DNA of 64,000 nucleotides from Callorhinchus milii (Eukaryota), in assembly GCF_018977255.1 (NCBI RefSeq), contig NW_024704765.1, positions 4,402,001 through 4,466,000 of the forward strand. The letters run 5' to 3'. This document shows, piece after piece, positions 1,226 through 25,825 of the stretch (position 1 is its first letter; every line of letters begins with the position of its first letter). Under the pieces are notes generated by a model. It was given only the letters and a program-made list of their open reading frames with translations. It was not told the origin of the DNA and ran no database searches. Position numbers and translations under genes: made by a program.

Positions 1226-2398
1226 TATATGACTCCACTTTAATGTAACTAAGTATGTTTCTTTGTGTTTTTGTGAGGATGGAATAGGCAAATATACATA
1301 CTTTACAGTGGAGCAAAAGGAGGAACTTATGCTGAACTTTCCCAATTCCAGCTGAGAAAAGAGATAGATCTCGGCCTGTGCATAGTTCTGGGCATCCCAT
1401 TTTAGGAAGGATGCCAATGTTATGAAGAGATGACAGAGGAGATTCACTTCGATGAGAATCATACTTGTGAGGAAAGACTAGAGAAACAGAGGCTGTTTTC
1501 ACTCAAACAAACAAGTTGAAAAAGGATCTGATAGAGCTGTTCCGAATTATGAAGTGGTGGGGGGAAAGATAAGACTTTTTTTTAAATCTGAGGGATCGTT
1601 GGCCAGGATACTAGGAGAAACTCCCTTCTGTTTACAAATAGTGCTGCAACATCTTTAACATTCACCTGAACAGCCAGGTGGAACCCTGGTGAATGATCAG
1701 TTCATCTGGAAGGTTGTTGGCCAGAACATGGGGAAAATCTCCCTGCTATTTTTCAGTTGGGTTGTAGGACCTTTAATGTCCACCTCCTCTACCGGCACGG
1801 ATGGGAACTTGGCATAAAGGCTCATCCAAGGGCTGATACCTTTGACAATGCGGCATTCACCCAGAACTGCTCTGGAATGTCATCTTGAGCTGTGAGCTCA
1901 GGGTCAGGCGTCAAGCTTGAACCCTACATAAGTGCAGGAGGTTGGAAGGAAAATGGCTAACTTCCCTCCCTCCCTAGACAACAAAAATAAATTGTCAAAT
2001 ACTCTTCTATTAAGTTGCTGCCATATTTAATTTAAAAAATACAAATTATAAATGTGACCAGGGAGCAGGTTGTGACTTCAGTCCCGCAACACTACAAACC
2101 AGGGAGCAAACACCTTCATAAACTGTCATCAGTTAACATTACAAAAATACATTCGAACCTTCTGTATAACCCAAGCTGTCAATATGACAGTTCATCAATT
2201 TGTAATTACCACAAAAGAAAATCAATTTCCTTCATTATGAAGGTTTGACATCCACAAATTGTCCAGGTATTTTACAAAAGAAAAGTCAGGACATTTACAT
2301 TTACGGAGAGCACATCTCTCCTACAGCACAGCATGCAACCACTCTCTAGCGAGGGAATGGTGGTTGAGGTATGAGGGGAGAGAGAGAGAGAGGTCTGT

Positions 2399-3850
2399 TC
2401 AGCTCTGCCAGGGTCTCCAGAGAGCACGGACGCTGGGCTGGGAGCTGTGCGTGACAGAGTCCTGACAGGACTTGCTGTGCGGAGGGCAAACAGTGCAGTA
2501 ATGTGGCTCCTCTCCCGCTCCCTGTAATGCCTGCAGTAAGTTGCGAACGCCTGGTGTCCTGGTCTCTGGCAACGACAGAAAGTGCAGCGTCTTCTGTAGA
2601 CAGCGAGAGTAGCCGGCCTTATAGTCCTGCAGAGGGTTTGGCGTCTGGCAATCAGCTGCTGTGAGAGAGAAACAGTCAAACGTTATAATAATAATAAAAT
2701 AATAATAATAATCCTTACATTTGATATAGTGCCTTAGCTTGTCTCAAAGCACTTCACGGAATATACCGTAAAGTGTATTTTGTGGACAAAACTATGTATA
2801 TGTCTTTATGTATAAGTAGACTAATAGACAAATGTTCCTATGTACTGTATAATGTTTATGTCTTTACGTATAAAGCTCCAGCTCATTCACAGACAAGTGT
2901 ATCTACCATCCAGGAACCAGACTACCAAAACTGCCACAGAAGGCTGGCTTGATTCTGACATTCTGTTGCCGAACGTGTCACCCCGGAGCCAATTCAGCTC
3001 CAAGGAGACCTTCTTTACTTTCCTCCCCCCAGGAGAATTTTTTCTCCTGGAGAATTTTTTCTCCTGGGGGGAGGAATGACTAATTGGTCATTTGACATCT
3101 GAGAAGCGCGGGTTTGATCCTCATTAGATGAATGATAGATACGAGTAAAGGTCTGGGAGCTTCCTGGTGGGCAACGCAGCTCAGCATGAAATAGGTGAGA
3201 GCTTTGCCAACATCTTCCTGTCCGCAGCTGGGACACGAATACCTTCCCATCAGGCACTGGCTGGTCAGTTAGCCTTCAGTTGCAATCACACAGTGCGCAG
3301 TCAGTGCCGGCGGAGGCAACGTGTGGAAGACAGACACTCACCGAGCTCGGGGTTGTGTTGCAGGTAGCTGAGTGTGCTCTCCAGGATGACCGCCTTCTCC
3401 AGTTTGCAGTTTGCTCGCTCATTCTGTAACTGTGTCCCCAGTAACTGCTTCAGTTGGGCGATGCTCTGGTTGATGCGATCCCGTCGCCTCTTCTCCACCA
3501 TCGGCTTCATCAGCTGCACAGACACACAGAGAAACATGACCGTCAGCAACTCTGACCCCCAACACAAGACACTCACTGGCAGCATTTACACTCTTTATTA
3601 GGGACACAATTGCCCCCCAACAGCTGTCAGACACCCACAAATAAGACTCTGAGTAACAATTACTGTTAAATGGCAATCAGACCGCACGCGCACACAATGC
3701 CCTCGTTCCCTCCCAAACTGTTGTGGTTTCAAACGGAATCCAGTTGAAGTGGCTTCGCTGCCTCTCACTTACTCTGCATTTCTCTTTGGCTGTCAGTGGA
3801 CCCTGACACCGGCCTCTGCTCAGATACTCCACACGGGCGCTGGGAGCCAT
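2399..3850 (-). CDS. hes5: HES5-like bHLH-Orange-WRPW transcriptional repressor, copy 1 (intact, 169 aa)
   Basis: Exons 3850-3773 (MAPSARVEYLSRGRCQGPLTAKEKCR), 3513-3342 (LMKPMVEKRRRDRINQSIAQLKQLLG...KLEKAVILE) and 2658-2399 (Orange QDYKAGYSRCLQKTLHFLS ... LWRPWQS*). GT/AG junctions keep frame (510 nt). The MAPS..LT.KEK.R/L.KP.VEK.RRDRIN start and 3-exon layout resemble HES5, not HES3. Exact paralogue name uncertain. Confidence 0.85.
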
Positions 3851-3914: not shown

Positions 3915-4003
3915 ATTTAAAGCCCCTGTATTTAAAGCCCATGATTAGCATCTGAGTGCGTGAGGCTCTGCCTTCCCACAGGTTCCCACACTCGGCCACC
4001 AAT
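3915..4003 (-). promoter_or_regulatory. Proximal promoter of hes5-like copy 1: CSL/RBPJ sites, CCAAT, TATA-like
   Basis: TGTGGGAA x2 (3983-3990, 3973-3980), inverted CGTGAGGC (3959-3966), CCAAT at ~3999-4003 and TTTAAATA. The block recurs upstream of all four hes copies. Confidence 0.75.
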
Positions 4004-4424
4004 CCCCGGTCTCAGGGGGACAGTGAGTGATGGCTCCATTATTTCAACTTCTATTGACCGCTGGCTCTGGTTAAACACATTGCCTGATGGCAGTTTGAGT
4101 CTGTGGGAGACAAGGTTCAATAGCCAGAGTCCGGGGTCTCCCTGCAAGATCCTGGGAAACCCCGGGGTCAAAGCCTTCCCACCAAATCCACTGTCTGTCA
4201 TATTGTTTTGCAATTATTGTTCTGTTTTTGCTCCCTTGAATACTTAAATTCTTAATTCAACCTGCCCTGCACAGCATGTTGTTCAATTGCCTTTAGAGTG
4301 AAGGGTCTCATCTGACAAGAGGGCTTGAAGCCCTACTTCAGGCTGGGATTTCTGTGCTGGTTGAGGAATCCTCTGCTACATTGTCCAAAAGGGCTGTCTC
4401 AATATTGAGATAGTTTTATCAGTA

Positions 4425-5710: not shown

Positions 5711-7705
5711 CAAATTCTGCCTGTCTTTGCACTTAAGGCAGAATGGCACAGAAATAATTGTTCCAATGAGTATGATTCTTCCCGATGAAGTTCTTCTCCC
5801 TGCGTTTTATATCTTATTTGAGCCTGGATCAGATTTTTTTTAATCATTATTTTTTCTCTCCCTGTTGAATACATCTCATCTGTTTAAGGACAAATCAACC
5901 AGAGTTGCCTCACCTAATCACTAACCCCACCCCACCCCCAACACCCAACACACGCACGCATGCCATGGAGTACATGCATGGTTAGATGTCTGGCAATGAC
6001 ACAGGAACATGGTCAGTGCACAAAGTCAGGTATCCTGCCCACACTCACTAGGCTTAGACACGAAGAGTGTCACAGGATAGGAGGTGGGCGTGGGTGGGAG
6101 GGTGGAGGGGCTTAGCGGAGGTTAATCAGCGCCAGATTGGCTAACAGACGGGGTGTTAAACTGTGGCTTTGCTGTGCTGTTCGGCTGGGTTTCACATGAG
6201 GAAAATCTTTTCATCATGCAGTCATTTGAAATTAAGGCAGGAAAGCAAGTATCTGAGATGACCAGGTTAGTGCTAAGCACCTCTTCCACATGTTTCCCAA
6301 ACTCAGACGCCAATCACTGCATTCAGCCACAAACACTATATCAAATGCAAGGTTATTATTATTATTATTACATGGGCATACCGAGGCCAATTGGAGTTCC
6401 ACCACTTCCCCAAGTGACAGCCTCCCTCTTCACCTTTGAACCTCTGCATTGATACACTTGGAAAACTTTAAGGAACTTTGTCATCAACAGTGGAAAGACC
6501 TAAAGGAGGAATTCCTTCCTGCACACTTTGTGATCTGAATTTAAGGATGGTGGGGAATGGGTCAGTTTACTCTTAATATACCACAGTTATATTCCAGAGG
6601 ATGTTCACAAGTTTTGTGTGTGTTTTTCTTGTGATTCTTATATTCTTAAACTAAATTTTAGTTCCTTTAGTTCTTTCATTTTTCTTCCAATTGTTTTGTT
6701 TTGTTTCTTCTCCAGAAGCCATCAGACTATTTATGGTTCTGCAATTACCCTCCAGTACCTCGCAAAAGCTTATTAAGTAACCTGGAAAAGAAACTGTCCC
6801 TATTGATTTCTGATTTAATTAGCCCCCGTCCCCCCAAATAAAGACTGAATCCCATGAGTTTAAACCCAAACCACCTTGGTACAGTATAAAATATCCCTCA
6901 CATTGTTTCAAAATTATTTTATTTATCCATCCTAGTTTATAACAACAACAAGAACAACTTTCATGTATATCGCACCCTGTAACATGCGGAATCATAAAAC
7001 AAAAACAGTATTTGCAAAGTATAAAACATTTCATGCAAAACCACATCTCTTGATCACAACAGTCAATTTTGCATTCACTGACCCTCTCAGTCTTCGTGCG
7101 GGAAGTATGGTGAGGATGAGAAAGAATGTGTCTCATGACCTTTCTAATTTTCTCCCCTTCTCCCCTAAAGGTACCAACATGAACTAGACATTCGATCTAC
7201 AGGTCCCTCCCTGTCTCAAGTGACCTTTTTTCATGCGCCAGTAAGACAGTGAGTGTTGATATGATATTCAACCATGAGGTGCATTCCAACCAAGGCGGAT
7301 CTGGTCTGATATCCACAAGCATGACCTTGACCAGCAGGCAATAGTGATCAGGAGAGGGAACCCTCTGGCTAAATCTCAGCCCCTGTGATTACAGGGTCTT
7401 TCTATTGCGTCCAATTAGCCACAGTTGTGGCACGTTGCTGATTTAAATCCTACTCTCAGTTCTATATTCACACTCATAGTTCATCTGGGGATACGGAGGC
7501 TTATCTGTCTGCAACAAATAAGCCACCTGGATCCGTGCTATTGGTGCCTGACTCAGCTAGGGAAACAGGATTTGTGTGACTTAGCATCAGGGCAATAAAT
7601 ACTCATCATCTCACTGGCGACATTTGCAAATGATGGACACACTGAAAACCAACCCCACTGAGCTGACACCTCCAAAAGTTCCTAAGTCTCTACATTTCAC
7701 AGACA

Positions 7706-9320
7706 TTACACATCACAAAGAGCAGGATTCTGGGTCCAACTGAAGCAGCTTTTTGAGAGAGGGAGTGTATGTGCAAAGCCTTTCAACTCTGTCTGGATCT
7801 GCTGAGTATTGGAGTGACACGGTCCCTCTTCCACACTTTCCTTCAGCACTTCCAGAGTTGCTGCCATCTTGGGTTGACCACAAGTGTCGGATCTCTTGCA
7901 CACACTTGTTGTGTATCGCTTGAATTTATTCGGCTGGTGGGATGCTGCAATCAACCAAAAAGAAAGAGATTTGTGAATGAAATGCTAGCATTATTACAGG
8001 GGTTACTTCCCAAATCTAACTATTAACAGCAATGATTGAAATTATAATAATAATCCTTGTATTTGATAAAGTGCCTTATCACGTCTTCAAGACGTCTCAA
8101 AGCGCTTCACAGAATATACTGTAAAATGAATTGACAGCATATTTTGTGGGCGAAATGCGGCAGCCAATTGCACACAGCAGCGTCCCACAAACAGCCGTGG
8201 ATTGAGTGACCAAATTACTATTTATTTATTTTTGAAGGGATTATTAGCCCCGCAAAAGCAATCCGCCAATCGACTAACAATCGGGTTCCTACGTACTGCT
8301 GGGTAAACAGAGGCGTGTGTGGAGTGAGGAAACTTGCCCAACGTTTCACTTGCCGGGAATCGAACCCAGGGCTCTCGCTTGCGAAGCGAGTGCTCTAACC
8401 ACTGAGCTACAGGACTCCACAATGCCATTTCTTGTCACAATCTAAGGAGCACTTGAGGAATTGGAAGCTTACTCTGAACTCAGGGCGTGTGCCAGCCTCG
8501 GTGCTGCTTCATTTCCATGATGACAGCTTCCTCCAGTTTGCCGAGTGCTCCATGTTCCTCTCCACCAACTTCTTCAGCTGAGTGATGCTGTCGTTTATAC
8601 GATCTCTGCAGCTCTTTTCAATGATGATTGGCTTCATCAACTGTAATGAAGCAAAAAAAAGACATTGATTGAATTGTCATCAAAATAATTTCCCTCCCTC
8701 TCCCCATGCATTATTCTCGCTTGAGGATGTAGACTATTGTCTTGGAGGATAGTTACAGTATCTTTCCCAGTCGTCTTGATGTGTTAAATCAGACGATGAG
8801 TGTTGGTAGAATATTTAACCACAGAGGCATCACAGCTGAACCCAACCCTTACCTCTCCCCCTGCCATAATGCATACAGCAACGAGAGATCTAAAATGTGT
8901 TCAGGAACTGGAACATTTTCACTGATTCCCCCCCCACTCCCCTTTATAATTCGCAATCAGCAAACTCAGCACCAAACAGGATTGTAACTAATAACAATAA
9001 TAATAATCATTGCATTTGATGTAGCGCTTTATCATGTCTTTGAGACAGCTCAAAACGCTTAACAGAATATACTATAAAGTGATTTAACTGTATATTTTGC
9101 AGGCAAAATGAGACCTTCTGGGATCTGGCTGTCTGTACTTACCCACTGATCCATCAGAGGAACCTTTATTAAAAACTTTACATTTTAGTTTAGCTCTAGA
9201 AGTGACGCATTTACACTCCATATTATTTGGAAAATCTGAACTTACTCTACATTTCTCTTTGGCTGTCAGCCTGGAGTACTCTCCGATTAGCAGGAGATCA
9301 GCAGGGGCACTTGGAGCCAT
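7706..9320 (-). pseudogene. HES5-like copy 2, degenerate pseudogene
   Basis: Exon 1 9320-9246 MAPSAPADLLLIGEYSRLTAKEKCR. Exon 2 8640-8473 LMKPIIIEKSCRDRINDSITQLKKLV..., then a frameshift before KLEEAVIME and an in-frame TGA at 8509-8511. Putative exon 3 from 7944 with an Orange-like relic (HNKCVQEIRHLWS) and no WRPW. 3' boundary approximate. Confidence 0.75.
8043..8420 (-). mobile_element. Full-length tRNA-derived SINE (abundant family in this window)
   Basis: Head GTAGCTCAGTGGTTAGAGCACTCGC..GGTTCGATTCC (A/B boxes), body GGGCAAGTTTCC..GCCTCTGTTTACCCAGCAG, tail GAAGCGCTTTGAGACGTC..AAATGCAAGG(ATT)n. Confidence 0.88.
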
Positions 9321-9409
9321 TGCGCTAAGACTGGATAGGAGCAAAGAATTCTGATCTGGACGTCGCTGGTGCTGCCTCTTGCAGGTCTGAAGACTTCAGC
9401 CCCAAAACT

Positions 9410-9665
9410 CCTGTATTTAAAGCCTGTGATTAGCATCTCAGTGCGTGAGGCTCTGCCTATCCACAGGTTCCCACACTCGGCCGCCAATCCCCGGTCTCAG
9501 GGGGACAGTGAGTGATGGCTCCATTATTTCAAGCTCTATTGACCATTGGCTTTGGTTAAACACATTGCCTGGTGAGCAGGTGGAGTATGTGTGAGCCAGG
9601 GTTCATTGCTGGAGACTGAGGACTCCCTGCAAAATCCTGGGAAAACCTGAGGTCAGAGCCTTCCC
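9410..9665 (-). promoter_or_regulatory. Promoter of hes5-like copy 2
   Basis: TGTGGGAA 9468-9475 intact, inner site mutated (9458-9465), CGTGAGGC 9444-9451. Upstream sequence is homologous to 3990-4185. Confidence 0.65.
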
Positions 9666-10627
9666 ATTCTGGGAGAATGTTGGCCACGGGTAATAAGTGA
9701 GGTCAGACACACGTTGCTGTGGTATTTCATTGATGCAAGTCAAAGAGCTGCAAAGAAGAAACCAATCCAACAACATCCTGACAGCAGGCCCTTATCCGCA
9801 CGTACACCCAGTTCCCCATGACCTTTCATTTAGCTCTTTTCTTTAACCTAAAGAAGACACAATTCAGGCATCCTCCCCAGCTCTCAATATAAAGTGTTGG
9901 TAAACCTAACTATTGTATTCAGGAATATGATTCTTATCAAGTCCAACTTCTGCTTACTGAGAGACTATAGTTAAGTGCAGCAACATTTTGTAGGAAAACA
10001 CAGCAGTCAACAAGAGCAAGAACCCACAAACAGCTAAGGTTATGCACGGATTATTATTATGAGGCAATAATCCGATTAATCTAGAGATTGTTGACCAACA
10101 ACTTTTAAAATCCAACTGAAGTTGTTTCTAAATGATCAAGGACATATTTGCAAATGTTAGCAAACAGAGACCGGTTCCTGTAGTTAGCTAACAATAGCAG
10201 TACATAGCAAACCTCGTGAAGAGGAATAATAAATAATCCTTATATTTCATAAATAGTCCTTATATTTGATACAGCGCCTTTCACGTTGAGAGGATGTCTT
10301 ACAGCTCTTGATAGGATTTACTAAACGTATAGTGACTGTGTATTTTCCAGGTGAGAGAGCTATTATACAGCAGAGGAATTGCACATAGCAATGTCCCACA
10401 AACACAGATGAAGTGCATGAACAATTTTACCAGGCGGATTGTTGGTCAGGGTATACCTTTCTCTTTTCGAATGGAGCCATGTCCACCTGAAGAGCCAGTA
10501 ACTGGGAAAGAATGAGTTAAGAGTAGTAGCGATGAGCCTTTATTTTAATACAGTGAGAATGTATTGGTGCTTGGGAGGAAAGTTCAGATGAGCAATGACA
10601 ATAGTGGTATCAATTTAAAGAAGGAGA

Positions 10628-10810: not shown

Positions 10811-13800
10811 GGTCAGCAGCACACACATGCATGCACACATCCATATGCTCAGGAATAGGAACCTTGGCTGATTTTGCCTCTCCCTAAGCCAAGGGGACTG
10901 AAGTCAGTTGTAGCCCTGGATGATATCTGCTAACTGAGTACTGATTCAAAACTGTGATTTAAACCTGGGATATTCTTAGCTTGCGTGCATCATCTATTCA
11001 TTCGTTCATTTATTCACTGGGTCACCAGAGCAACAGTTTATATTTGCAGGGGGTTGTGCAGTGTGAATGTAAAAATATTTCACATATAAATGCCAACAAA
11101 ATATACAGTCAATTCATTTTACAGTATATTATGTGAACTGCTTTTAGATGTGTCGAAGTTGTGATAAGGTGCTATATCAAATGCAAGGATTATTATTGTT
11201 ATTTCAATGATTGCAGTTAGTAGTTAAATTTAGGAAGTAACCACTGTAAAAACGTTCATATTTCACTCAAAAATCTCTTTCTTGATAAAACGCTATATTA
11301 AATGCAAGGATTATTATTGAGTCAAACTTTAATGTAATTCACTGGCAGAGCATATCAGAGAGTGGTTGCAGGTGTTCCAAGCAATAGAAAATACGATAAC
11401 GTTAGTAAATTTGGACTAAATTAGAGACAAAACAAATAAATTCTGTTTCGTTTGGACTTTTATGATCTTTTCAATATATTAATGGTGCAGAAATAAGCTT
11501 GGAGATGTACGTTTCGAAGAAGAAAGCAGAAAATTGTAAAGGGACATATTAAGTGATTGGGCAAATTTATGGCAGAAGGAGTTCAACATAGCAGGTACTT
11601 GATAAGAATGGATCTGAAATATAAAAAGAAGGAAGTGTTGCTGTAGCTATATAAAACACTGGTCACAACTCATTTTGTGTTTGGTTTTGAACACCTACCT
11701 TTGATAATTCCTGTGATGAAGATACTTAGCCTATGATGAGAGGTTGGGTCAACTAGGGTTATTCCCTGGTGGTGAGGAGGTAGAAGGGATGTGATTGAAG
11801 ATTTTAGTGTGAAATATTAGAAAGTGGCTTTCCCTGGGATACTCTGCAGACGCAGTGTTATAATTTCTCCTCAAAACTCTGAGACTGATTTTATTCAGTT
11901 TTGTGCCTCCTTTATTCCAGACACAAGAAAAACACAATCTTGTTTCTAGCGCTCAAATCTCAATAGAGGAGACACAACAACAACAACTTGCATTTCTATA
12001 GTGCCTTCATGTTTGTTTGTGGGACACTGCTGTGCGCAATTGGCTGCCGCGTTTCGCCCACAAAATATACAGTCAATTCACTTTTCAGTATATTGAAACA
12101 CTTTGAAGCGCTGAAATTGAAGTATTTCAGCGAAGCACTTTGAGACGTCTCAAAGAGATCAGAAGGCGCTATTGCAAGGATTGTTATTATTATTGTAGGG
12201 TGGTATCTTGGAGGGCTTTAAAGCCAGACAGGGAGCCAGGAGAGGAAAACTGTGAGGCAGATGACAGCACTTGCACAGGTCTGGAACCTTGGCAAGGAGT
12301 TCATCTCCACTGTTCTAATACGTGGAACGTGTTACATTTGTTTTATTTTGGGTTTTCATTTTCTGAGCAGTTGGCATTAAAGGGTTAAAATCAGGCACTG
12401 CCTTTGTGTCCTTCAAATGGAAATGTTCCTGGCCCTAATTACCCTCTGAGCACTGAGGGGCTGAGCTTTCTCAGGCTCTGGGAATTTCACATGACATTAA
12501 TATCCTGGGGTGTGAGCGACACACTTACTGTCCAGATGCTCCTCAAGGAAATAGGTTGCAACTGCCCACGATCCTGAGTCACAGCCCAGCACTAATTCCC
12601 CGTGTACTCAGCCACACGCCTTTTGTGTCTTGCCGACTGAAACAATTGACTGCAGTGTGGGAAACTGTGAACACACAGTCTTGTCATCTCTATTACCCAA
12701 GCCCTCTCTCTCTCTTTGCTATTCTCCTCTTGACTCCATCAAAAGTAAGTCTTGCTCTGCTAAACTTCCGTCCTGTGAGATAGTAGATGTTATTTACCTG
12801 GAATTTGGAAAGGCATTTGACACTGTTCCATCGACTACTGTAGAAGATTTTGCCTCCAAAGCCAGTCACTGTGCTTGACAGTAATCACTTGTCAAGCGCT
12901 TTAGGATTTTTGACATGATAAGGTGCTATAAAAATGTAAATTCAAAGGTTTAAAACAATGCCATAGGTCCATTAAACTGGTTCAGCAAATGGATGTTTTA
13001 TGTGCCACAGAGGGCAGTGCTGGGACCACAATTAGTTATAATTTAAAAAATTAATTGGCGAACTGGTATTCTGGCAATTGCATCTAAATTTCCAAATTGG
13101 AGACTATTTCAATGTGACAATCAGCTGCCGCATTTCATCCAGAAAATGTACAATCAATTCATTTTACAGTATATTCTGTGAAGCGCTTTGAGATGTCTCA
13201 ACGACGTGATAAGGCACTATATCAAATACAAGGATTATTATTATGATGATAATCAATGTGCACTAAACCAGAGGGATTTGGAGTAACTGAAGTTGTGGCT
13301 CTAAAGGTGACAGATGCAGTTTAACACAGAGACATGTAAAGTGATGGCATTGGGCAGATGAAAGGGCAGTGTGGAATACGTGTAAAATTGTGTCCACCCT
13401 GGTGAGATCACATTAGCTTGAATGTGAAACTACACTGTTTGAAGTCATTATTTGCAGTTTGGGCTTTCCTTATTTCAAAAAAGATGATTTGTAAGAGGGA
13501 TTGAGTTTAGCTGTGACACTCTGTCCATCTCCTTCCCATGACTCAGTTATGTAACCTCCAGACACTGTGCCAACTGAAATAATAAACCTTGCATTTGATA
13601 TAACCCCTTATAAAGTTTCGAAGCACTTCGCAGGATATGCTGTGAAGTGAATTGACTGTGTATTTTGTGGGTGAAATTACCATTCGAGATCAGGTACCAA
13701 AAGATGTCACAGGCAGCATAGGCGAGGATAGGAGAGAAATAGAGGAGGGAGTGATGCTTTCATAGAGAAAAGGAACAACATGGCAATTTTGATGTAACAT

Positions 13801-14497
13801 TTTATTAGGAAAAGGCAACAGCTCCGTAAAATATACAAAACCTTCTCATGAAAACACAACATACACAACACATCAATTACCTGATAATATTCGCTTTTAG
13901 TAACAAAGCTACAGAACTCACACATGGCGGAGAAATAACTTATTTTCACACTGTAAATTCACTGAACTTGAGACACTGTGTGTGTGATTATTTTGATTGT
14001 CACCCCCAAACACTGCTCAATTCCATAAATTTACCGTCAAGTGAAAAAAAAAATACCCATTCAACCTTCATCTTCCTTCCAATTACATTCCCAAGATTGA
14101 AATAATTTTATACATCACCAGAAAAGGAAATGATTACATCACATATTGATTTACAATCACAAGAAAGGACTTGCATGTGCACAATGCTTCAACAAATGAA
14201 AATGCTTCAAAACACTTTACTCCAATGACTACTGTAGTGACTGTGATGGAAAGCACAATTGTCAATATGACAAACCGTCATAAATAGTGTTATATTTACA
14301 ACACCATCAGATGTGATGGGAATGGGAATATTCCTTCACAATGAAGGGACATCAGTATTTCAGGCTCCTGAAATAACACACTGGGTGGAGCACACGTCGC
14401 CCACATAACAACAACAAATTACACTTGGACAGCGCCCTTCACGTCCGAAAGACGTCCCATAATGTTATGTTTACAGGCACTCCCGTGTACAGACATC

Positions 14498-15591
14498 TCA
14501 GCTCTGCCAGGGTCTCCAGAGAGCACGGACGCTGGGCTGGGAGCTGTGTGTGACGGAGCCCTGACAGGACTTGCTGCGCGGAGGGCAAACGGTGCAGTAA
14601 CGCGGCTCCTCGCCCGCTCCCTGTAACGGCTGCAGTAAGTTGCGAACGCCTGGTGTCCTGGTCTCTGGCAACGACAGAAAGTGCAGCGTCTTCTGCAGAC
14701 AGCGGGAGTAGCCGGCCTTATAGTCCCGCGGAGGGTGTGGCGTCGGGCAATCAGCGGCTGTGAGAGCGAAACAGCCAAACGTTATAATAACAATAATAAT
14801 CCTTACATTTGATACAGCGCCTTATCGTGTCTTTGAGACGTCTCAAAGCGCTTCGCAGAATATCCCGCAAAGTGAACCGACTGTGTGCTTTGAGGGCGAA
14901 ACCATGTATGTGCCTTTATGTATGAAGCTCCAGCTCTTTCACAGGGGAGTCGGTGTGTGCATCAGGCACTGGATGGTCAGTTAGCCTTCAGCTGCAATCA
15001 CACAGTGCGCGGTCAGTGCCGGCGGAGGCAACGTGTGGGAGACAGACACTCACCGAGCTCGGGGTTGCGTTGCAGGTAAGTGACTGCGCTCTCCAGGATG
15101 TCCGCCTTCTCCAGTTTGCAGTTTGCTCGTTCTTTCTGTAACTGTGTCCCAGTAACTGCTTCAGTTGGGCGATGCTCTGGTTGATGCGATCCCGTCGCCT
15201 CTTCTCCACCATCGGCTTCATCAGCTGCACAGACACACAGAGAAACAAAGACCGTCAGCAACTCTGACCCCCAACACAAGACACTCACTCGCAGCATTTA
15301 CACTCTTTATTAGGGACGCAATTGCCCCCCAACAGCTGTCAGACAGACGCCCAGAAACAAGACGCTGCGTAACGGTTACTGTTAAATGGCAATCAGACCG
15401 CCGGCTGTGCGGACGCACACAATGTCCTCGTTCCCTCCCGAACTGTTGTGGTCTCAAACGGAATCCGGTTGCAGTGGCTTCGCTGCCTCTCACTCACTCA
15501 CTCACTCACTTACTCTGCATTTCTCTGTGGCTGTCAGTGAGCCCTGACACCGGCCTCTGCTCAGATACTCCACACGGGCGCTGGGAGCCAT
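14498..15591 (-). pseudogene. hes5: HES5-like copy 3 (left palindrome arm) with a 1-bp frameshift in exon 2: young pseudogene or sequencing error
   Basis: Exons 15591-15514, 15224-15054 (171 nt vs 172 in copies 1 and 4; GGG instead of GGGG at ~15148-15150) and 14757-14498 ending WRPWQS*. Confidence 0.75.
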
Positions 15592-16254
15592 CGGTGCCAG
15601 TCTGGCCAGGAGCAGAGCAGGGAGCGGGTGTGGGTGGTGCTGCCCGGTGCGGGGCATTTAAAGCCCCTGTATTTAAAGCCCACCGTTAGCATCTGAGTGC
15701 GTGAGGCTCTGCCTTCCCACAGGTTCCCACACACTCGGCCGCCAATCGCAGCGTTCGACCTGCAAACAAAAGACGTGTGTCTGAGCCCCCGGGGGATTGG
15801 CACTGGGCTGTGACTCCTGACTGTGGGCAGCGGCTGCCCATTCCCTGAGGAGCATCTGCACAGTAAGTGTGTCTCTCACACCTCAACTTCTTACTGTCCT
15901 GGTGACACTCCCCAGAGCCTGGGAAAGGCACTGTGGCCACAAAGACACAACTTTTATTGCACAGAAGGATATCACTCTTCAAGGGGGTTTTATGTGTTGG
16001 GTTTGCTGATTGCCTAATATGTAGCCACTTTTAAAATGACCACTGTGTTTGATCTGATCTCCTGTTGAGACCTTTCAACATTTCCTTCACATTGTGCTTT
16101 GGTGCGAGGCTCCCTTGGAAGAAGACACAAGTTAAGACACATAGTATGGGTTCATAAATCACTTGGGAATTTAGAATTACCTTCGCATTTGGTATAACAC
16201 AGTTCATGTTGGGAGGATCTTCCACTCCAACTTAGATTTCCCCAGGTGAGGAGT

Positions 16255-16520
16255 TTGAACTCACATTTGGGGAGGCTGACACTCCAGTGCAGTGCTCGGG
16301 GGTGTTGCATTGTCAGAGATGCAATCCTTCGGATGAGACATTAATCTGAGATCCTGTCTGCCTCTGAAGGTGGATGTTAAAGATCCCATGACATTTTTTG
16401 AAAAAGAGAAGGGGGTTTCTCCTGGTCTCCTGGCCAACAATACCCCGAAATAAACTTGATCATTCACTTCATGGATATGTGTGAGATGTTACTGTGCAAC
16501 TGTTGGCGGCCTTCTTTGTC
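16255..16520 (+). mobile_element. DeuSINE-like fragment in the palindrome spacer
   Basis: GCATTGTCAGAGATGCAATCCTTCGGATGAGACATTAA..AAAGATCCCATG..GTCTCCTGGCCAAC, homologous to 47735-48165. Confidence 0.6.
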
Positions 16521-17209
16521 CACAAATAACAACAACAACAAATTGCACTTGCATAGCACCCTTCACATCGGAAACACGTCTCAGGGCGCTGGATAGTCAG
16601 GGTTGTCTGGACCCGAGCTGGAAACTAGGGTCAGGAGGGGTGGAGAGCATGGATGGGAGAGTGCCCGAAAACAGGGTCGAAGAGGAAGCGACGCAGTTGA
16701 AGAGGAAGGTCAAAAATACGGTATATCCTGTGGAGGATCCTCCCAACATGAACTGTGTTATACCAAATGCGAAGGTAATTCTAAATTCCCAAGTGATTTA
16801 TGAACCTATACTATGTGTCTTAACTTGTGTCTTCTTCCAAGGGAGCCTCGCACCAAAGCACAATGTGAAGGAAATGTTGAAAAGGTCTCAACAGGAGATC
16901 AGATCAAACACAGTGGTCATTTTAAAAGTGGCTACATATTAGGCAATCAGCAAACCCAACACATAAAACCCCTTTGAAGAGTGATATCCTTCTGTGCAAT
17001 AAAAGTTGTGTCTTTGTGGCCACAGTGCCTTTCCCAGGCTCTGGGGAGTGTCACCAGGACAGTAAGAAGTTGAGGTGTGAGAGACACACTTACTGTGCAG
17101 ATGCTCCTCAGGGAATGGGCAGCCGCTGCCCACAGTCAGGAGTCACAGCCCAGTGCCAATCCCCCGGGGGCTCAGACACACGTCTTTTGTTTGCAGGTCG
17201 AACGCTGCG

Positions 17210-17300
17210 ATTGGCGGCCGAGTGTGTGGGAACCTGTGGGAAGGCAGAGCCTCACGCACTCAGATGCTAACGGTGGGCTTTAAATACAGGGGCTTTAAAT
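17210..17300 (+). promoter_or_regulatory. Proximal promoter of hes5-like copy 4 (mirror for copy 3 at ~15655-15746)
   Basis: ATTGG, TGTGGGAA 17225-17232 and 17235-17242, GCCTCACG 17249-17256, TTTAAATA at ~17279. Confidence 0.75.
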
Positions 17301-17364
17301 GCCCCGCACCGGGCAGCACCACCCACACTCGCTCCCTGCTCTGCTCCTGGCCAGACTGGCACCG

Positions 17365-18471
17365 ATGGCTCCCAGCGCCCGTGTGGAGTATCTGAGCAGA
17401 GGCCGGTGTCAGGGCTCACTGACAGCCACAGAGAAATGCAGAGTAAGTGAGTGAGTAAGTGAGTGAGTGAGTGAGTGAGAGGCAGCGAAGCCACTGCAAC
17501 CGGATTCCGTTTGAGACCACAACAGTTCGGGAGGGAACGAGGACATTGTGTGCGTCCGCACAGCCGGCGGTCTGATTGCCATTTAACAGTAACCGTTACG
17601 CAGCGTCTTGTTTCTGGGCGTCTGTCTGACAGCTGTTGGGGGGCAATTGCGTCCCTAATAAAGAGTGTAAATGCTGCGAGTGAGTGTCTTGTGTTGGGGG
17701 TCAGAGTTGCTGACGGTCTTTGTTTCTCTGTGTGTCTGTGCAGCTGATGAAGCCGATGGTGGAGAAGAGGCGACGGGATCGCATCAACCAGAGCATCGCC
17801 CAACTGAAGCAGTTACTGGGGACACAGTTACAGAAAGAACGAGCAAACTGCAAACTGGAGAAGGCGGACATCCTGGAGAGCGCAGTCACTTACCTGCAAC
17901 GCAACCCCGAGCTCGGTGAGTGTCTGTCTCCCACACGTTGCCTCCGCCGGCACTGACCGCGCACTGTGTGATTGCAGCTGAAGGCTAACTGACCATCCAG
18001 TGCCTGATGCACACACCGACTCCCCTGTGAAAGAGCTGGAGCTTCATACATAAAGGCACATACATGGTTTCGCCCTCAAAGCACACAGTCGGTTCACTTT
18101 GCGGGATATTCTGCGAAGCGCTTTGAGACGTCTCAAAGACACGATAAGGCGCTGTATCAAATGTAAGGATTATTATTGTTATTATAACGTTTGGCTGTTT
18201 CGCTCTCACAGCCGCTGATTGCCCGACGCCACACCCTCCGCGGGACTATAAGGCCGGCTACTCCCGCTGTCTGCAGAAGACGCTGCACTTTCTGTCGTTG
18301 CCAGAGACCAGGACACCAGGCGTTCGCAACTTACTGCAGCCGTTACAGGGAGCGGGCGAGGAGCCACGTTACTGCACCGTTTGCCCTCCGCGCACCAAGT
18401 CCTGTCAGGGCTCCGTCACACACAGCTCCCAGCCCAGCGTCCGTGCTCTCTGGAGACCCTGGCAGAGCTGA
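17365..18471 (+). CDS. hes5: HES5-like copy 4 (right palindrome arm, intact, 169 aa)
   Basis: Exons 17365-17442, 17744-17915 and 18212-18471. bHLH LMKPMVEKRRRDRINQSIAQLKQLL...KLEKADILESAVTYL, Orange domain, LWRPWQS*. Canonical splice sites. Confidence 0.88.
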
Positions 18472-20932
18472 GATGTCTGTACACGGGAGTGCCTGTAAAC
18501 ATAACATTATGGGACGTCTTTCGGACGTGAAGGGCGCTGTCCAAGTGTAATTGTTGTTGTTATGTGGGCGACGTGTGCTCCACCCAGTGTGTTATTTCAG
18601 GAGCCTGAAATACTGATGTCCCTTCATTGTGAAGGAATATTCCCATTCCCATCACATCTGATGGTTGTAAATATAACACTATTTATGACGGTTTGTCACA
18701 TTGACCCTTGCAAAGCTGAGCAGACCTCTGTCTCCTCATACTTCAACCTCCATTCCCTCATCAGAGAGTGGAGTGGGTACAGGCCAATGTTATAACTTCA
18801 CAGTGAAGATTTGATGGGCTTTATCACAAGTTCCTGATTTTTTTTTGTAAAATTATGCTTTTTAAGCTTTCAATATTTGAAAGTTTTAGTAAATTTAAAT
18901 ATTGGGTCCTGTCGGTGAGCTGAGAGAACAAACGACTCACATCCCACTAATACCTCCAACTTTTGGTCAGATCATGTATCAGCTCAACTGGTGGCATCCC
19001 ATGATATTTGACAACAGAGGCCATCACAGCCCTGATCCCGTCTGTCCTCACTCTATGTCCACCTGACTGTGGTAGTCCAGTTCCTGAGTCAGGCAGGTTG
19101 GTGGTACCCCAGGGCACTGCTGATGACAGACCAGCAAATCTGGCTCAACAGCAGGACTTGGCTGGGCAGACTCGTCACTGAAAGTAGGGATTCTGCCCAC
19201 TTAACTCCTGTTAACCCTGCAAGCAAAAGCCAAGGGTGGTCCTAGCAGGGGAAGTAGTGGGAAGTTTGCCAGACGGTGCTCTCGAAGGCATTCTTTGCTT
19301 TCATAGCTGGTTAAACTCCAGCAGTTCCCTAACGCATACTCTGGGATCCTCATTCAGGCATCTCATTAGACATTTTTGATCCTGGTGTAATCAAATGAAG
19401 AATCATGTTTAAAATGTGAGACATTGTATTCCTTCATAGTGAAGGGGATTTAGAATCTTTTATTGTGAAAAGACGTTGTAATCTTATATTTTGATGTTAG
19501 CTCTGCGCTGAGCATTGTTCTGGCAGATGTGTCTGTCCCAATCTTGCAACGGGGAAGGTGCGGGTTGCTCTCTGCTGTGAGAGATTGTCACTGGAGAGCA
19601 GTGATGAGGGGCTCACATCAATCCACCATTGTGGAGTTCCACAGTCTACAATTTATTCTGTACTGTGTTTGCACGTTTGTCATAATAAAACGTATACCAA
19701 ATCTCTCTTCTTTATGGTTCAATTGCTCTGCTTGCTGTGAAGGCTGTTCCAAATATAGTGCATTACTGAGTACCTTAAAGTCCAACAACCGTCCCTACGA
19801 ATGGGTTACTGTTGAGTCAGATGTACCCTTTGCTGCATGTAACCCGTGCTATAGCTGTCCTGGGAGTGCTGTGTAAGACAGTGGGGAGGTTTTCTGTATG
19901 TAACGCACGTTATACAGTGGTTGAATTGGGAGATGCTGGTTGAGAATATAGGATGTAAAAGCTGTGAAACAAAGTCCCATTTCTTCAGTAATTACCGTCC
20001 TGAGGGAATCAATGGCTTCAGACCATTGATGTAATAGATGTATCATTCGCATCCGACATGTTATTTCCCGCCCGAAACCAGCAGAAGGCGCCAGAAGATA
20101 ACTAACAGCCAATGCCAAAAAAAAGCCACGAGAGACTTTCGAGATTTTAAGTTAATTCCTCACATAATAATCCTTGCATTTGACACACCTTCAAGACGTC
20201 TTAAAGTGCTTCGCAGAACATACCGTAAAGTGAATTGACTTGTGCATTCTGTGGGCGAAACCCGGCAGTCGATCGCGCACAGCAGCGTCCCACAAGGTCA
20301 CGGGAGTGAGCGACCAAATTATTATTATTATTAATGATTATTTTTTAATTTAACTGTACCACTCCACACGATAAGGCGTCTCCCATTTGTGTTACCCAGC
20401 TTCCTTATTAAGCAAGCTCCTTAAGTTTGCGCGGAAATGGTGGCACAATTTTTCCTCCCACTTGGTGATGGGTTTCCACTCGGTGATGGGCGTCACCTTG
20501 GCTGACACCAAAAAAAAAACAGTGCAGTTGGGGGCCCTGACCCCGGGGTCGGAGGAGAAAAGTCGGCCGGGATTTGGTGCCCCCGATCCGGAGAGCGAGC
20601 TCCCGCTGGACGATCCGTTGGGGCTGTGATACCAGGGTCAAACGTACCGGTGACGCTCACTGTTAAAGCTCAAACGAGGATCTGGGCCACTTGGGTGAGG
20701 TCCTGGGAGGCCACACTGGGAGGAGGGAACACTTTTCGGTGGGGGGGGGGGGGGGATGGGGAGAGGGACGGGGAGGGATGGGGAGAGGGACGGGGAGAGG
20801 GACGGGACGGAGGGAGGGATGGGGGGGGAGAGAAAAGCGCAAGAGAAAAAGGCTCTTAAAAATATTTGCAAACTATTATTGCTTTATTACCAATAGGAGA
20901 CATAAAAGTAAATGGACTCAAAAATTCTCCCC

Positions 20933-21860
20933 CGGTGCCAGTCTTAATGCCAGGCTCAGCTGCAAGTTCCTAATGCCAGGCTCAGGTGCCAGTCCCTGAT
21001 GTCAGGCTCAGGTGCCAGTCTTTACGCCAGGCTTGGGTAGGTGCCAGCCATGATGCCAGGCTCAGATGTCAGTCCCAGTCTCAATGCCAAGCTCAGATCG
21101 GTTACCAGCCCTGGTGCCAGGCTCAGGTGCCAGTCTCAATGTCAGGCTCAGATAGGTGCCAGCCATGATGCCAGGCTCAGGTGCCAGTCCCGATGCCAGG
21201 CTCAGGTGCCAGTCCCGATGCCAGGCTCAGGTGCCAGTCCCGATGCCAGGCTCAGGTGCCAGCCCTGGTGCCAGGCTCAGGTGCCACCCCTGATGCCAGG
21301 CTCCGGTTCCAGTCCCGATGCCAGGCTCGAGTAGGTGCCACCCCCGATGCCAGGCTCAGGTAGGTGCCAGCCCTGGTGCCAGGCTCAGGTGCCAGCCCTG
21401 GTGCCAAGCTCAGGTGCCAGCCCTGGTGCCAGGCTCAGGTGCCAGCCCTGGTGCCAGGCTCAGGTGCCACCCCTGATGCCAGGCTCCGGTTCCAGTCCCG
21501 ATGCCAGGCTCGAGTAGGTGCCACCCCCGATGCCAGGCTCAGGTAGGTGCCAGCCCTGGTGCCAGGCTCAGGTGCCAGCCCTGGTGCCAAGCTCAGGTGC
21601 CAGCCCTGGTGCCAGGCTCAGGTGCCAGCCCTGGTGCCAGCCCCGATGCCACCCCTGGTGCCAGGCTCAGGTAGGTGCCAGCCCTGGTGCCAGCCCCGAT
21701 GCCAGGCTCAGGTAGGTGCCAGCCCTGGTGCCAGGCTCAGGTGGCAGCCCTGGTGCCAGGCTCAGGTAGGTGCCAGCCCTGGTGCCACCCCCGATGCCAG
21801 GCTCAGGTAGGTGCCAGCCCTGGTGCCAGCCCCGATGCCAGTTCCCGGTGTGAGGCTCAG
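20933..21860. repeat. GC-rich minisatellite (TGCCAGGCTCAGG/TGCCAGCCCTGG variants) upstream of ICMT
   Basis: Many ~12-13 nt subunits forming 25/29-nt units, with a 183-bp higher-order duplication (identical ORFs at 21335 and 21518). Confidence 0.9.
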
Positions 21861-22051: not shown

Positions 22052-25000
22052 ATGGCGGGCCCGGCTCCCGGCACCTTCGCCCTCGGCCTGTCGGTCACGC
22101 TGCTGCCCGCGGTGACCGGGGCCCCGGCCGGGCCGCTGGGCCGCGCCCTCGTCGCCGGGTACCTGGCGGCGCTCAACGGCCTCCTGCTGCTGCTGTACCG
22201 CGGCCCGGCCTACCAGGTCAGGTCAGGTCAGGTCAGGTCAGCCCGGGGCCTGGGCCTCGGCCCGCGGGCCCCAGTGCCGGGGGGGGGGGGGGGAGCAGTG
22301 GGGGGGAGTGGGGGGGAGGAGTGGGGGGAGCAGTGAGTGGGGGGAGCAGTGGGGAGCAGTGGGGGGAGTAGTGGGGGGGGAGCAGTGGGGAGCAGTGGGG
22401 GGAGAGTGGGGTATGGGGAGCAGTGGGGGGGAGCAGTGTGGGGTATGGGAGCAGTGGGGGGGAGCAGTGGGGGTGGGGAGCAGTGGGAGCAGTGGGGGGG
22501 GAGCAGTGTGGGTATGGGGAGCAGTGGGGGGAGCAGTGGGGGGGGGAGCAGTGGGGGTGGGGAGCAGTGGGGTGGGAGCAGTGGGGGGGAGCAGTGGTGG
22601 GGGGAGCAGTGGGGTTGGGGAGCAGTGGGGGGTATGGGGAGCAGTGGGGGGTATGGGGAGCAGTGGGGGGGGGAGTGGGGGATAATAATAATCCTTATAT
22701 TTGCTTCGCGTCTTGTCGTTGAGACGTCTCAAAGCCCTTCGCAAAATACACTGTAAAGGGTAGTGACTGTGTTTTTAGAAGGGTTGGGGGGTTGGGAAGG
22801 GGGTTGCCGTGCGGGCAGGATGGGAGGGGGGGGGGGGGTTGGGGGGTCTGGGGAGGGGAGTTGGGGGGGTCTGCCTCATTTGCCGGGGGCTCTGCTGGGG
22901 TCCGTGTACACCTCGGCCGCCTCGTAATCGCCGCCTCTCTCCGCAGGTCGCGGTCCGGGCCTGTTTCCTCGGGTTCGCCTTTGGCTGCGGTTTACTGCTG
23001 AGCTTCGGAGGGGCTTCGTGGCAACACTTTGGCTGGTAATCGGCCTCCGGCGAGGGCGCCGTGCGCCGCCGTGTCAGGGATCGCGCTCCTTAGCTGCGGC
23101 CGGCTCTCTTAATGAGCTTCCGAACGCTCCCGGCGCTTCTCCCCTCGCTGTGCGACGGTCAGCGGTGCCGTCGGGAGACTGTTCGAGGAGGACGTTTGAA
23201 AAGAGAAGAGAGTTAGTTCCTCCCCGGGTTCCTGGCCAGCGATCTTCCAAATTAATTAGTTATTCCCCCGGTGGCGTGTGGGACCTTGTTTGGCTGTTAA
23301 CGCAAACCTGACAGTCGTGGTGCTGATGATGATAATAATCCTCGCATTTGATATTGCGCCTTATCGCGTCTCCGAGACGTCTCAAAGCGCTTCACAGAAT
23401 ATACTGCGAAGGGAGTCGACTGTATGTTTCGTGGGCGAAACGCAGCAGTCAATCTCGCACAGCAGCGTCCCACAGACAGTCGTGAACTAACGCTAAAAAT
23501 GCATGTTCTTGCTCTCTGCTGCTTGGCAGGTATCTGTGCTCGTTGAGTTTTTTCCACTACTCGGAGTACCTGGTGACGGCCATCATTAACCCCCAGTCCC
23601 TCTCCCTCGACTCGTTTCTGCTGAACCACAGCCTGGAGTACAAACTGGCGGCCATGTCTTCCTGGGTGGAGTTCACGATCGAAAAGCTCTTCTTCCCAGG
23701 TTAGTCTGTCAACAACAACAACAACAACAACCGCAAATTACATTTACACGGCGTCTTTCACGTAGGGAGGACGTCCCAAGGCCCTGGACAGTCAAAGATT
23801 TGCACCAGAGCTGGGGCTTGGGATCAGGAGAGGTGGAGGGCAGGGGAGGGTGGGGGCAGGAGGGTGACAGACAGCACGGTTGAAGAGGTAGGTCTTGAGA
23901 CGGGCCTCGAATGAGGCGAAGGGACTCTGGGATGGAGTTCCAAAAGGTGGGGACGGAGAGGCTGAAGGCCCGAACGCTGATGGTCGGGCGGGCAGGGCGG
24001 GGGACATGGAGCAGGCCAGAGCTCCGCCAGAGGAGAGCGGTGTGACGTGTGAAGAGTCGAGCTGGATTATGAAATCTACCAAAGCTGACCGTGTGTGTGT
24101 TTATGTGTGTGGGTGTGTGTGTTTATATGTGTGGGTTTATGTGCGTCTTTGCAGAGCTGAAGCAGCTGAGGTGGTTGAGCTGCCTGGGCCTGGCGATGGT
24201 GCTGGTGGGAGAGACGCTGAGGAAAGTGGCCATGCTGACTGCCGGCTCCAACTTCAACCACATTGTGCAGAACGAGAAGTCAGAAAGCCACCAGCTCGTC
24301 ACCTCCGGGGTCTATGCCTGGTTCCGGCACCCCTCCTACGTGGGCTGGTTTTACTGGAGCATCGGCACTCAGGTACGGACGTCTGGCGTTCAGTCACTCG
24401 CTTCCCTGCTGAAACCACGTTAAATAAAAATAAATAACAATTGTATTACAGGGGGGGCGAAACGTTGGGCAAGTTCTTTACTCCATGCACCTCTGTTTAC
24501 CTCGCAGCAAGTAGGAACCCAGTTGTTAGTCGATTGGCGGATCGCTTTTCCAGTGGTGATAATCCCTGAAAAAAATTGGTCAGTCAATCCAAGACTATTT
24601 GTGGGATGTCGCTGTGCGCAATTGGCTGTCACGATTAGCCANNNNNNNNNNNNNNNNNNNNNNNNNGCAGAGCTGAAGCAGCTGAGGTGGTTGAGCTGCC
24701 TGGGCCTGGCGATGGTGCTGGTGGGAGAGACGCTGAGGAAAGTGGCCATGCTGACTGCCGGCTCCAACTTCAACCACATTGTGCAGAACGAGAAGTCAGA
24801 AAGCCACCAGCTCGTCACCTCCGGGGTCTATGCCTGGTTCCGGCACCCCTCCTACGTGGGCTGGTTTTACTGGAGCATCGGCACTCAGGTACGGACGTCT
24901 GGCGTTCAGTCACTCGCTTCCCTGCTGAAACCACGTTAAATAAAAATAAATAACAATTGTATTACAGGGGGGGCGAAACGTTGGGCAAGTTCTTTACTCC

Positions 25001-25825
25001 ATGCACCTCTGTTTACCTCGCAGCAAGTAGGAACCCAGTTGTTAGTCGATTGGCGGATCGCTTTTCCAGTGGTGATAATCCCTGAAAAAAATTGGTCAGT
25101 CAATCCAAGACTATTTGTGGGATGTCGCTGTGCGCAATTGGCTGTCACGATTAGCCAACAAAATATACAGTCAATTCACTTTATATTATATTCTGTGAAG
25201 CGCTTTGAGATGTCTTGAAGACGTGATCAGGTGCTATATCAAATGCAAGATTATTATTATATTATTAAAATGTTACATTCAAAACCTTCAAAGCTACCTT
25301 CCCCCCTGGGCCCGCCCTATCATCGGCGGTAGGGTCTTCAGCTTCTCTGTACTTACCCTTTGGAACTCCATCCCACAGTCCCTTCGCCTCGCTCCCTCCC
25401 TCCCTCCCTCGCCTCATTCAAGGCTCGTCTCAAGACCCTCCTGTTTAACTACGCCTTTGGCCAATCTCCTATCTGTACCCTCCCCCGCCCTCCGCCCCTC
25501 CTAATCCAAACCCCAGCTCAGGTCCAAATCCCTGACTGTCCAGCACCTTGGGACGACATCCCAACGTGAAAGGCATTATACAAATGCAATTTGTTGTTGT
25601 TCTAGTCTTGCTAACACGTCTTCCTGTTTTCCTTTGCTTCAGGTGATCCTGTGTAACCCCATCTGCATCGTGGGCTACACGCTAGCCTCTTGGCGCTTTT
25701 TCCGAGAGCGTATTGAAGAGGAGGAGGTCACTCTGATCCATTTCTTTGGCGAAGATTACCTGCTGTACAAGAAGCAGGTTTCGACCGGGCTGCCCTTCAT
25801 CCAAGGAGTCAAAGTAGAGCCGTAG
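22052..25825 (+). CDS. ICMT: Isoprenylcysteine carboxyl methyltransferase (274 aa)
   Basis: Exons 22052-22216, 22947-23035, 23530-23699, 24155-24372 and 25643-25825. Motifs RACFLGF, FHYSEYL, AGSNFNH.VQNEK, RHPSYVGWFYWSIGTQ and WRFFRERIEEEE. AATAAA at 26889-26894. Confidence 0.96.
22280..22681 (+). repeat. G-rich (GGGGAGCAGT)n tandem repeat in ICMT intron 1
   Basis: Dozens of GAGCAGT units separated by G-runs. Confidence 0.9.
24667..25157 (+). other. Duplicate of ICMT exon 4 plus flank next to the 25-N gap (likely assembly artefact)
   Basis: 24667-25157 repeats 24151-24641, apparently exactly, and the two are separated only by Ns at 24642-24666. Confidence 0.85.

Follow-up and report, generated by a model that had tools for sequence, protein, structure and literature searches.

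A former hes gene end at the outer edge of an inverted repeat, and a possible route by which the repeat arm grew

Why does one arm of an inverted repeat, after carrying an intact hes-type gene, stop exactly where the end of another hes gene begins? We addressed this question in a 64,000-nucleotide stretch of Callorhinchus milii DNA (the window; all coordinates are positions within it).

The relic and the genes around it

Self-comparison of the window identified an inverted repeat, 14261-16225 versus 16730-18705, with 98.8% identity. The arms differ by 8 substitutions and 5 indels, which corresponds to a substitution rate of 0.4%, and each holds one three-exon hes-type gene facing outward (copy 3 on the minus strand, copy 4 on the plus strand). 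Beyond the right arm lies the gene end, hereafter the relic.

2176 to 3850, minus strand: copy 1 and its 3'UTR; coding sequence 3850-2399, 169 aa, intact; hairpins H1 at 2229-2243 and H2 at 2176-2190; the paralog matched by the relic
14261 to 16225, minus strand: left arm, 1965 bases, with copy 3 at 15591-14498
16730 to 18705, plus strand: right arm with copy 4; exons 17365-17442, 17744-17915 and 18212-18471; 169 aa, intact
18703 to 18853, plus strand: relic, proximal part; last 17 coding bases (PLQS-stop) and a copy-1-type 3'UTR, based on alignment, single-copy depth and bridging contigs
18854 to 19402, no strand assigned: interruption of the relic UTR by high-copy repeat sequence; depth 1400-14700 in bins 19021-19401; matches within the window at 19109-19231
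19403 to 19494, plus strand: relic, distal part; hairpin H1 at 19431-19445 and a decayed H2 region

When 18703-18853 was locally aligned with the reverse strand of 2415-2270, the score was 102 (108 matches in 132 ungapped columns). The part of the relic after the stop codon alone scored 78, versus 20.5 ± 3.5 and a maximum of 42 in 2000 dinucleotide shuffles. In a two-strand scan of the whole window in tiles of 300 bases, a score above 36 was reached, apart from self matches, only by the tiles with the copy 1 UTR (78); against the copy 3 UTR the relic scored just 38, a pair scored without a shuffle control.

The relic is the genuine end of a former plus-strand hes gene. A sequence-only reading of this DNA had proposed such a gene end, with a UTR of the copy 1 type, and had matched it to the terminal codons and 3'UTR of copy 1. 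All of the motifs that it quoted were located where it had placed them, the pairwise alignment lies far above shuffles both overall and after the stop codon, and this alignment supports the proposed gene end. Two details require correction. The relic codons, described in that reading as PWQS-stop, are P-L-Q-S-stop, with 2 of 17 bases differing from copies 1 and 4; and the relic, said to end at 18860, resumes at about 19403-19494 on the far side of a repeat, based on an H1 match and a weak alignment. The 15-base hairpin at 19431-19445 is found elsewhere in three hes UTRs only (4 matches, 0.01 expected), and 19403-19494 aligns weakly to the distal UTR of copy 1 (64/91 identical, with 4 of 1000 shuffles scoring as high). 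The middle ~60 bases of the relic barely align to copy 1. An Rfam search over 13500-20000 returned a single match at chance level (E 0.71).

We also considered the explanation that the relic is an artefact or a dispersed repeat, with either the junction mis-assembled or the common stretch a mobile element. Read evidence came from contigs of four DNA runs (X1 to X4) belonging to one study; such contigs drop rare alleles, and their depth is not equal to copy number. Contigs span the junction at 18705 in all four runs and reach 37 bases or more into the arm, and a second contig departs at 18705 into the left-arm flank in each of the three runs that were re-examined. In these three runs, relic bases 18709-18852 are represented by one contig per run at a depth of 5.5-9.9, versus thousands or more at true repeats, and the match to copy 1 begins inside coding sequence. 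Unique arm sequence has a depth of 13-17 versus 6-11 in the flank, a ratio of ~1.5-2, as expected for two collapsed arms. On the other side, the genome-wide repeat test was done on read contigs matched at 80% likeness, and contigs of the copy 1 UTR fell below this threshold, so that old diverged repeat copies could be missed. The assembly is also imperfect in this neighborhood. An ICMT exon is duplicated exactly over 491 bases (24151-25157) on either side of a 25-N gap at 24642, which looks like a scaffolding artefact, and the G run at 15150 in exon 2 of copy 3 is one base short relative to copies 1 and 4, causing a frameshift in the assembly; this 1-base deletion is absent among the entries listed for the four runs and may be an assembly error. 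Bridging contigs and single-copy depth largely refute mis-assembly or a mobile element as the source of the relic, and we regard this explanation as very improbable. With its single-copy depth and one other match in the window, the relic is not a dispersed repeat.

The translated hes-type gene, short and with three exons, contains a bHLH and a terminal WRPW motif, the latter followed by QS. We presume the label hes5 from likeness, length and exon number, together with the ICMT match and synteny from PMC8320183. Copies 1 and 4 differ by 17 nonsynonymous and 9 synonymous codon differences, and in the KADILE motif of copy 1 (3342-3513), V replaces D. Copy 2 (7700-9666) is a decayed coding region with repeat insertions, as read by eye; its upstream block 9404-9666 is 87% identical to 3919-4181 of copy 1, and its 3' region matched neither UTR type (107/500 and 374/500 shuffles as high). 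An ICMT exon lies downstream of the hes copies (Pfam PF04140, E 1e-22), and a long GC-rich tandem array occupies 20940-21860, directly upstream of the ICMT-like gene.

In passages of PMC8320183, the elephant shark cluster consists of three 3-exon, 169-aa hes5-like genes, and zebrafish her4/her12 adjoin icmt. The ICMT exon downstream in this window is a feature shared with the zebrafish genes among the hes5-like clusters of jawed vertebrates treated in those passages; they place the shark cluster near nol9, whereas the neighbor noted in the window is the ICMT exon. The term "gene conversion" occurs 0 times in the main text of that paper, and the same passages do not describe the arm structure or the relic. 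A search of mainly open literature gave, among its top matches, no report of gene conversion or of a gene relic within a hes cluster.

The outer junction and the polymorphic arm edge

14259 to 14273, minus strand: hairpin H2 of copy 3, intact; 6-pair stem and 3-base loop; straddles the left outer arm end
18455 to 18702, plus strand: 248-base unit; last 17 coding bases of copy 4 and 231 bases of copy-3-type UTR; putative templated insert
18657 to 18699, plus strand: polymorphic arm edge; X1 and X2 each show 8 differences relative to the left arm; X3, X4 and the window are left-type; C at 18699 in every right-type contig listed
18703 to 18705, plus strand: GAC microhomology at the right arm's outer end; hairpin H2 is cut here at its 3' base; a loose contig end leads into the left flank

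Arm homology ends exactly at 18705/14261, and the three bases GAC alone are common to both sides, in agreement with the earlier placement of a GAC-microhomology breakpoint in the last codons. From the GAC in the last codons of copy 4 (18455) to the GAC of the relic (18703) there are 248 bases, and this unit has a new junction at 18705 and no junction on its upstream side. Copy 1 and the arms are homologous as far as the stop codon, and the first base of the relic lies 17 bases ahead of that limit. Hairpin H2 has six pairs in both copy 3 and copy 1, with the closing pair swapped (U-A versus C-G). On the left, H2 closes beyond the junction, the first AATAAA follows 691 bases after the copy 3 stop, and homology between the flank and copy 1 is insignificant (162/500 shuffles as high). 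Because H2 is intact in copy 3, as it is in copy 1, and cut on the right, the new outer join is on the right side, where the sequence-only reading had put it. Short hairpins occur at both arm ends; positions no more than 3 bases from such a hairpin make up 4.2% of the window, and this post hoc observation is not relied on.

Just inside the junction, the four runs disagree. In X1 and X2, the contig that spans the junction departs from the left arm at 18657, at 18658, by two bases behind 18664, and at 18672, 18676, 18677 and 18679. Eight differences in 23 bases have a probability of about 4e-11 as independent polymorphisms, if 1% is assumed. In X3, left-arm bases occupy the edge on a contig that continues into the relic; in X4, a contig with the same start has one difference only. 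The left arm edge is identical in the window and three runs. The window is without two bases at the polymorphic edge, which may be a consensus error. Four of the eight X1/X2 bases agree with copy 1 (by eye, in a gappy alignment), which weakly favors the X1/X2 bases as ancestral. The simplest reading is that the X1/X2 edge is an old divergence that left-to-right conversion has erased in some haplotypes, although one mutation affecting several bases could also account for the cluster. Since individuals differ at the arm edge, overwriting between the copies likely continues there. Elsewhere in the arm, contigs from X1, X3 and X4 (17224-17750) join the arm-type promoter to a copy-1-type exon 1 and intron 1; these are either real conversion alleles or graph mosaics, and we set them aside as possible mosaics.

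Our preferred reading, to which we assign a probability of about 0.5, is that one-sided conversion from copy 3 lengthened the right arm by ~230 bases long ago and that copy 4 is the resident gene. The stretch 18703-19494 would then contain the final codons and 3'UTR with which a plus-strand hes gene originally ended, and these would have been pushed aside rather than overwritten. A break in the last codons of copy 4 would have been repaired one-sidedly from its mirror, copy 3: the upstream end, with long homology, would have invaded copy 3 and used it as template for the 17 terminal coding bases and 231 UTR bases, and the downstream end, with 17 bases of homology left, would have rejoined at GAC. 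The 17 bases would thereby have been duplicated, and the right arm would have grown by about 230 bases. A later left-to-right tract over 18657-18679 would likely still be segregating. A break at the relic start leaves one end with long homology and the other with almost none, which is the setting for microhomology-ended conversion in cultured mammalian cells. By simple arithmetic, a random breakpoint in a gene of ~2 kb lands in the last 17 bases ~1% of the time; a breakpoint within the last 17 shared bases therefore favors one-sided repair, which predicts it. The ancestral states of the locus are reconstructed ones and a 3-base microhomology is weak; two other routes, deletion between tandem genes and local tandem duplication with subsequent conversion, would end in the same sequence.

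In the first of these two routes, a fifth plus-strand gene once followed copy 4, which itself had a full copy-3-type UTR, and a GAC-mediated loss removed the DNA from H2 to the last codons of that fifth gene. This would yield an identical sequence. Deletions with short microhomology are common, other gene remnants exist at the locus (the decayed copy 2 and an orphan promoter), and the X1/X2 edge would simply be the diverged UTR of copy 4 itself. However, the route needs an extra gene as well as a breakpoint that falls by chance among the final 17 bases common to the copies (about 1%), and we consider it fairly unlikely.

In the second route, the GAC-to-GAC stretch of the resident gene, from its last codons to H2, was doubled locally, and the first unit was later converted to the copy 3 UTR. 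In copy-1-type UTRs, an H2 with the same GAC does lie 237 bases past the coding GAC, and the ~90 bases that precede the junction show homology to the distal UTR of copy 1 (59/72, with 0/1000 shuffles as high). Two events are needed, however; the oldest visible edge allele (X1/X2) is still copy-3-like (42/51 columns, counted by hand); and the distal part of the relic has no significant likeness to the copy 3 UTR (131/500 shuffles as high). These points make local duplication quite unlikely.

The inner arm end and the age of the junction

12466 to 12681, plus strand: orphan arm-type upstream region; 166/215 identical to 17029-17252 (0/200 shuffles as high); in right-arm orientation, with no gene body found behind it
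16240 to 16780, plus strand: SINE that makes up most of the spacer, broken at about 16529-16712 by a repeat tail on the other strand; the opening ~50 bases of the right arm are the SINE's own 3' tail

The sequence-only reading went further than the outer junction and had the whole right-hand gene replaced from the left arm: the 1965-base left arm would have been copied, inverted, over an older plus-strand gene, with two template switches, one at inverted SINE tails and one at GAC. The inner arm end bears on this model. Using comparisons against 26 SINE copies within the window, we found that the first ~50 arm bases (16737-16780) match the SINE tail (0/300 shuffles as high) and that the spacer bases at the right arm (16717-16732) match the SINE body (1/300 by mean score, 7/300 by best score), whereas the spacer bases at the left arm do not match the SINE body (192/300). 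An nhmmer profile of the same 26 copies found the spacer body (16427-16527) and found the tail at neither inner junction, a weaker result than the pairwise tests. A perfect 12-base palindrome occupies 16732-16743, two bases inside the inner arm end. A repeat-tail fragment in the UTRs of copies 3 and 4 (14407-14459 and 18510-18561) is also present in the spacer.

Because only the right arm has the SINE body next to it, with none on the left side of the spacer, the right gene looks resident. The orphan upstream region at 12466-12681 ends at its RBPJ-like sites and could be a promoter left behind by inversion of the copy 3 body. Arm-type upstream sequence is absent from copies 1 and 2 (26/200 and 12/200 shuffles as high), and there is no second orphan promoter between these two copies (92/200). 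Taken together, the SINE, the orphan region and its absence from copies 1 and 2 suggest, short of proof, that the resident right gene donated its upstream region to the left gene.

Whole-arm replacement from left to right is not supported, since the SINE crosses the inner end of the right arm without a break and does not do so on the left. The new outer junction on the right agrees with the model, as does a gap of ~9 bases relative to most family copies exactly at the right inner boundary of the SINE. Template switching at microhomology has precedent in passages of PMC4888836. Given that gap and the tail missed by the profile search, the right arm may instead have arisen from the left by a SINE-mediated fold-back. 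Nevertheless, the plus-orientation remnant at 12466-12681 and the two other minus-strand copies without that sequence count against whole-arm copying, as does the SINE body on the right only; and one recent copy would leave the diverged X1/X2 edge unexplained. We judge this model unlikely. Of the proposed replacement, a left origin is needed for the terminal 248 bases only, and SINE continuity at the inner end points from right to left.

Arm identity of ~99% is not a date for the junction, because X1 and X2 keep a diverged edge and the relic keeps its 2/17 differences; the latter exceed the 0.4% substitution rate of the arms (P = 0.002). The outer junction is likely old. Copies 1 and 4 differ at 20/353 non-SINE intron sites, versus 23/114 sites between the copy 1 UTR and the relic (Fisher p = 2e-5). 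When the intronic SINE is included (40/497; 20/144 in the SINE alone), this contrast has p = 5e-4, and when only the best UTR blocks are used (9/68), it has p = 0.03. Divergence is thus 5.7% in the non-SINE intron versus 13-20% between the copy 1 UTR and the relic. Homogenization between copies beyond the arms, by conversion, is indicated, and conversion between the arms has likely maintained their identity of about 99% since the junction formed. Near-identical arms, then, neither date nor orient a duplication.

Consequences for the 3'UTR and comparison with known systems

The first AATAAA follows 1212 bases after the stop codon in copy 4, versus 691 in copy 3. The copy 4 mRNA is predicted, from sequence, to carry a longer hybrid 3'UTR in which H1 occurs twice and H2 is broken. 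A hairpin with six pairs and a 3-base loop lies at 2229-2243, 14333-14347, 18621-18635 and 19431-19445; it is kept in all hes UTRs, and its loop varies. This H1-type hairpin is a candidate that, in our estimation, resembles Roquin-type decay hairpins.

A TGTAAATA site at 18666 falls within the polymorphic tract and is broken by the X1/X2 allele. We take TGTAAATA at 18666 to be a putative Pumilio site. Part of the tract also lies in a region for which copy 3 has a predicted 11-pair stem; among the four UTR stretches, the z-scores for folding were -2.7, -1.2, -1.4 and -1.3, of which only that of copy 3 is notable. In passages of PMC9840655, Pumilio-type and AU-rich elements are candidates for the fast decay of zebrafish her1. 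A more speculative extension, which we think unlikely, is that the palindrome has grown at both edges from opposite donors (the inner edge right to left, the outer edge left to right) and that the still-segregating tract toggles the Pumilio-type site and the 11-pair hairpin in the 3'UTR of a Notch-type effector. If this were true, creep of the arm edges would be a standing source of mRNA-stability alleles, and the locus would hold a dated germ-line record of non-canonical recombination termination. The locus also offers a test case in which two hes copies with nearly the same protein have different, polymorphic 3'UTRs.

No new biology is needed for the relic or the junction; the event is of a known kind, and the segregating edge is its best feature. 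If our preferred reading of one-sided conversion is followed, the closest known kind, by analogy, is the expansion of a palindrome arm with one new junction (PMC6790999). In both, one arm gains the flank of the other and a new junction forms at one end only; related junctions in that paper have 2-6 bases of microhomology. Whereas the expansion described there spans tens of kb, the gain here is about 0.23 kb; in addition, the arms here are 2 kb long with a Notch-type effector gene, the junction is present in all four runs, and a gene-end relic was left. The locus is a base-exact natural example of inverted repeat growth.

One-sided conversion ended by microhomology joining has been shown in mammalian cells, according to passages of PMC5104497. 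Common to that system and this locus is copying that passes the limit of homology, with the second end rejoined by microhomology. The experiments in those passages relied on a break induced in cultured cells and on the sister chromatid as donor, whereas the donor here would be an inverted paralog in the germ line. Near-identical arms, with paralogous variants that differ between individuals, are also known from arm-to-arm conversion in palindromes, as treated in passages of PMC3723533 and PMC8600007. The same signature by which such conversion is recognized was found here, with clustered paralogous variants in X1 and X2 and left-type bases in X3 and X4 (four runs, one study). Unlike the palindromes in those passages, this repeat has short arms in a fish-like hes cluster, was sampled in four runs, and has its direction of conversion assigned by parsimony.
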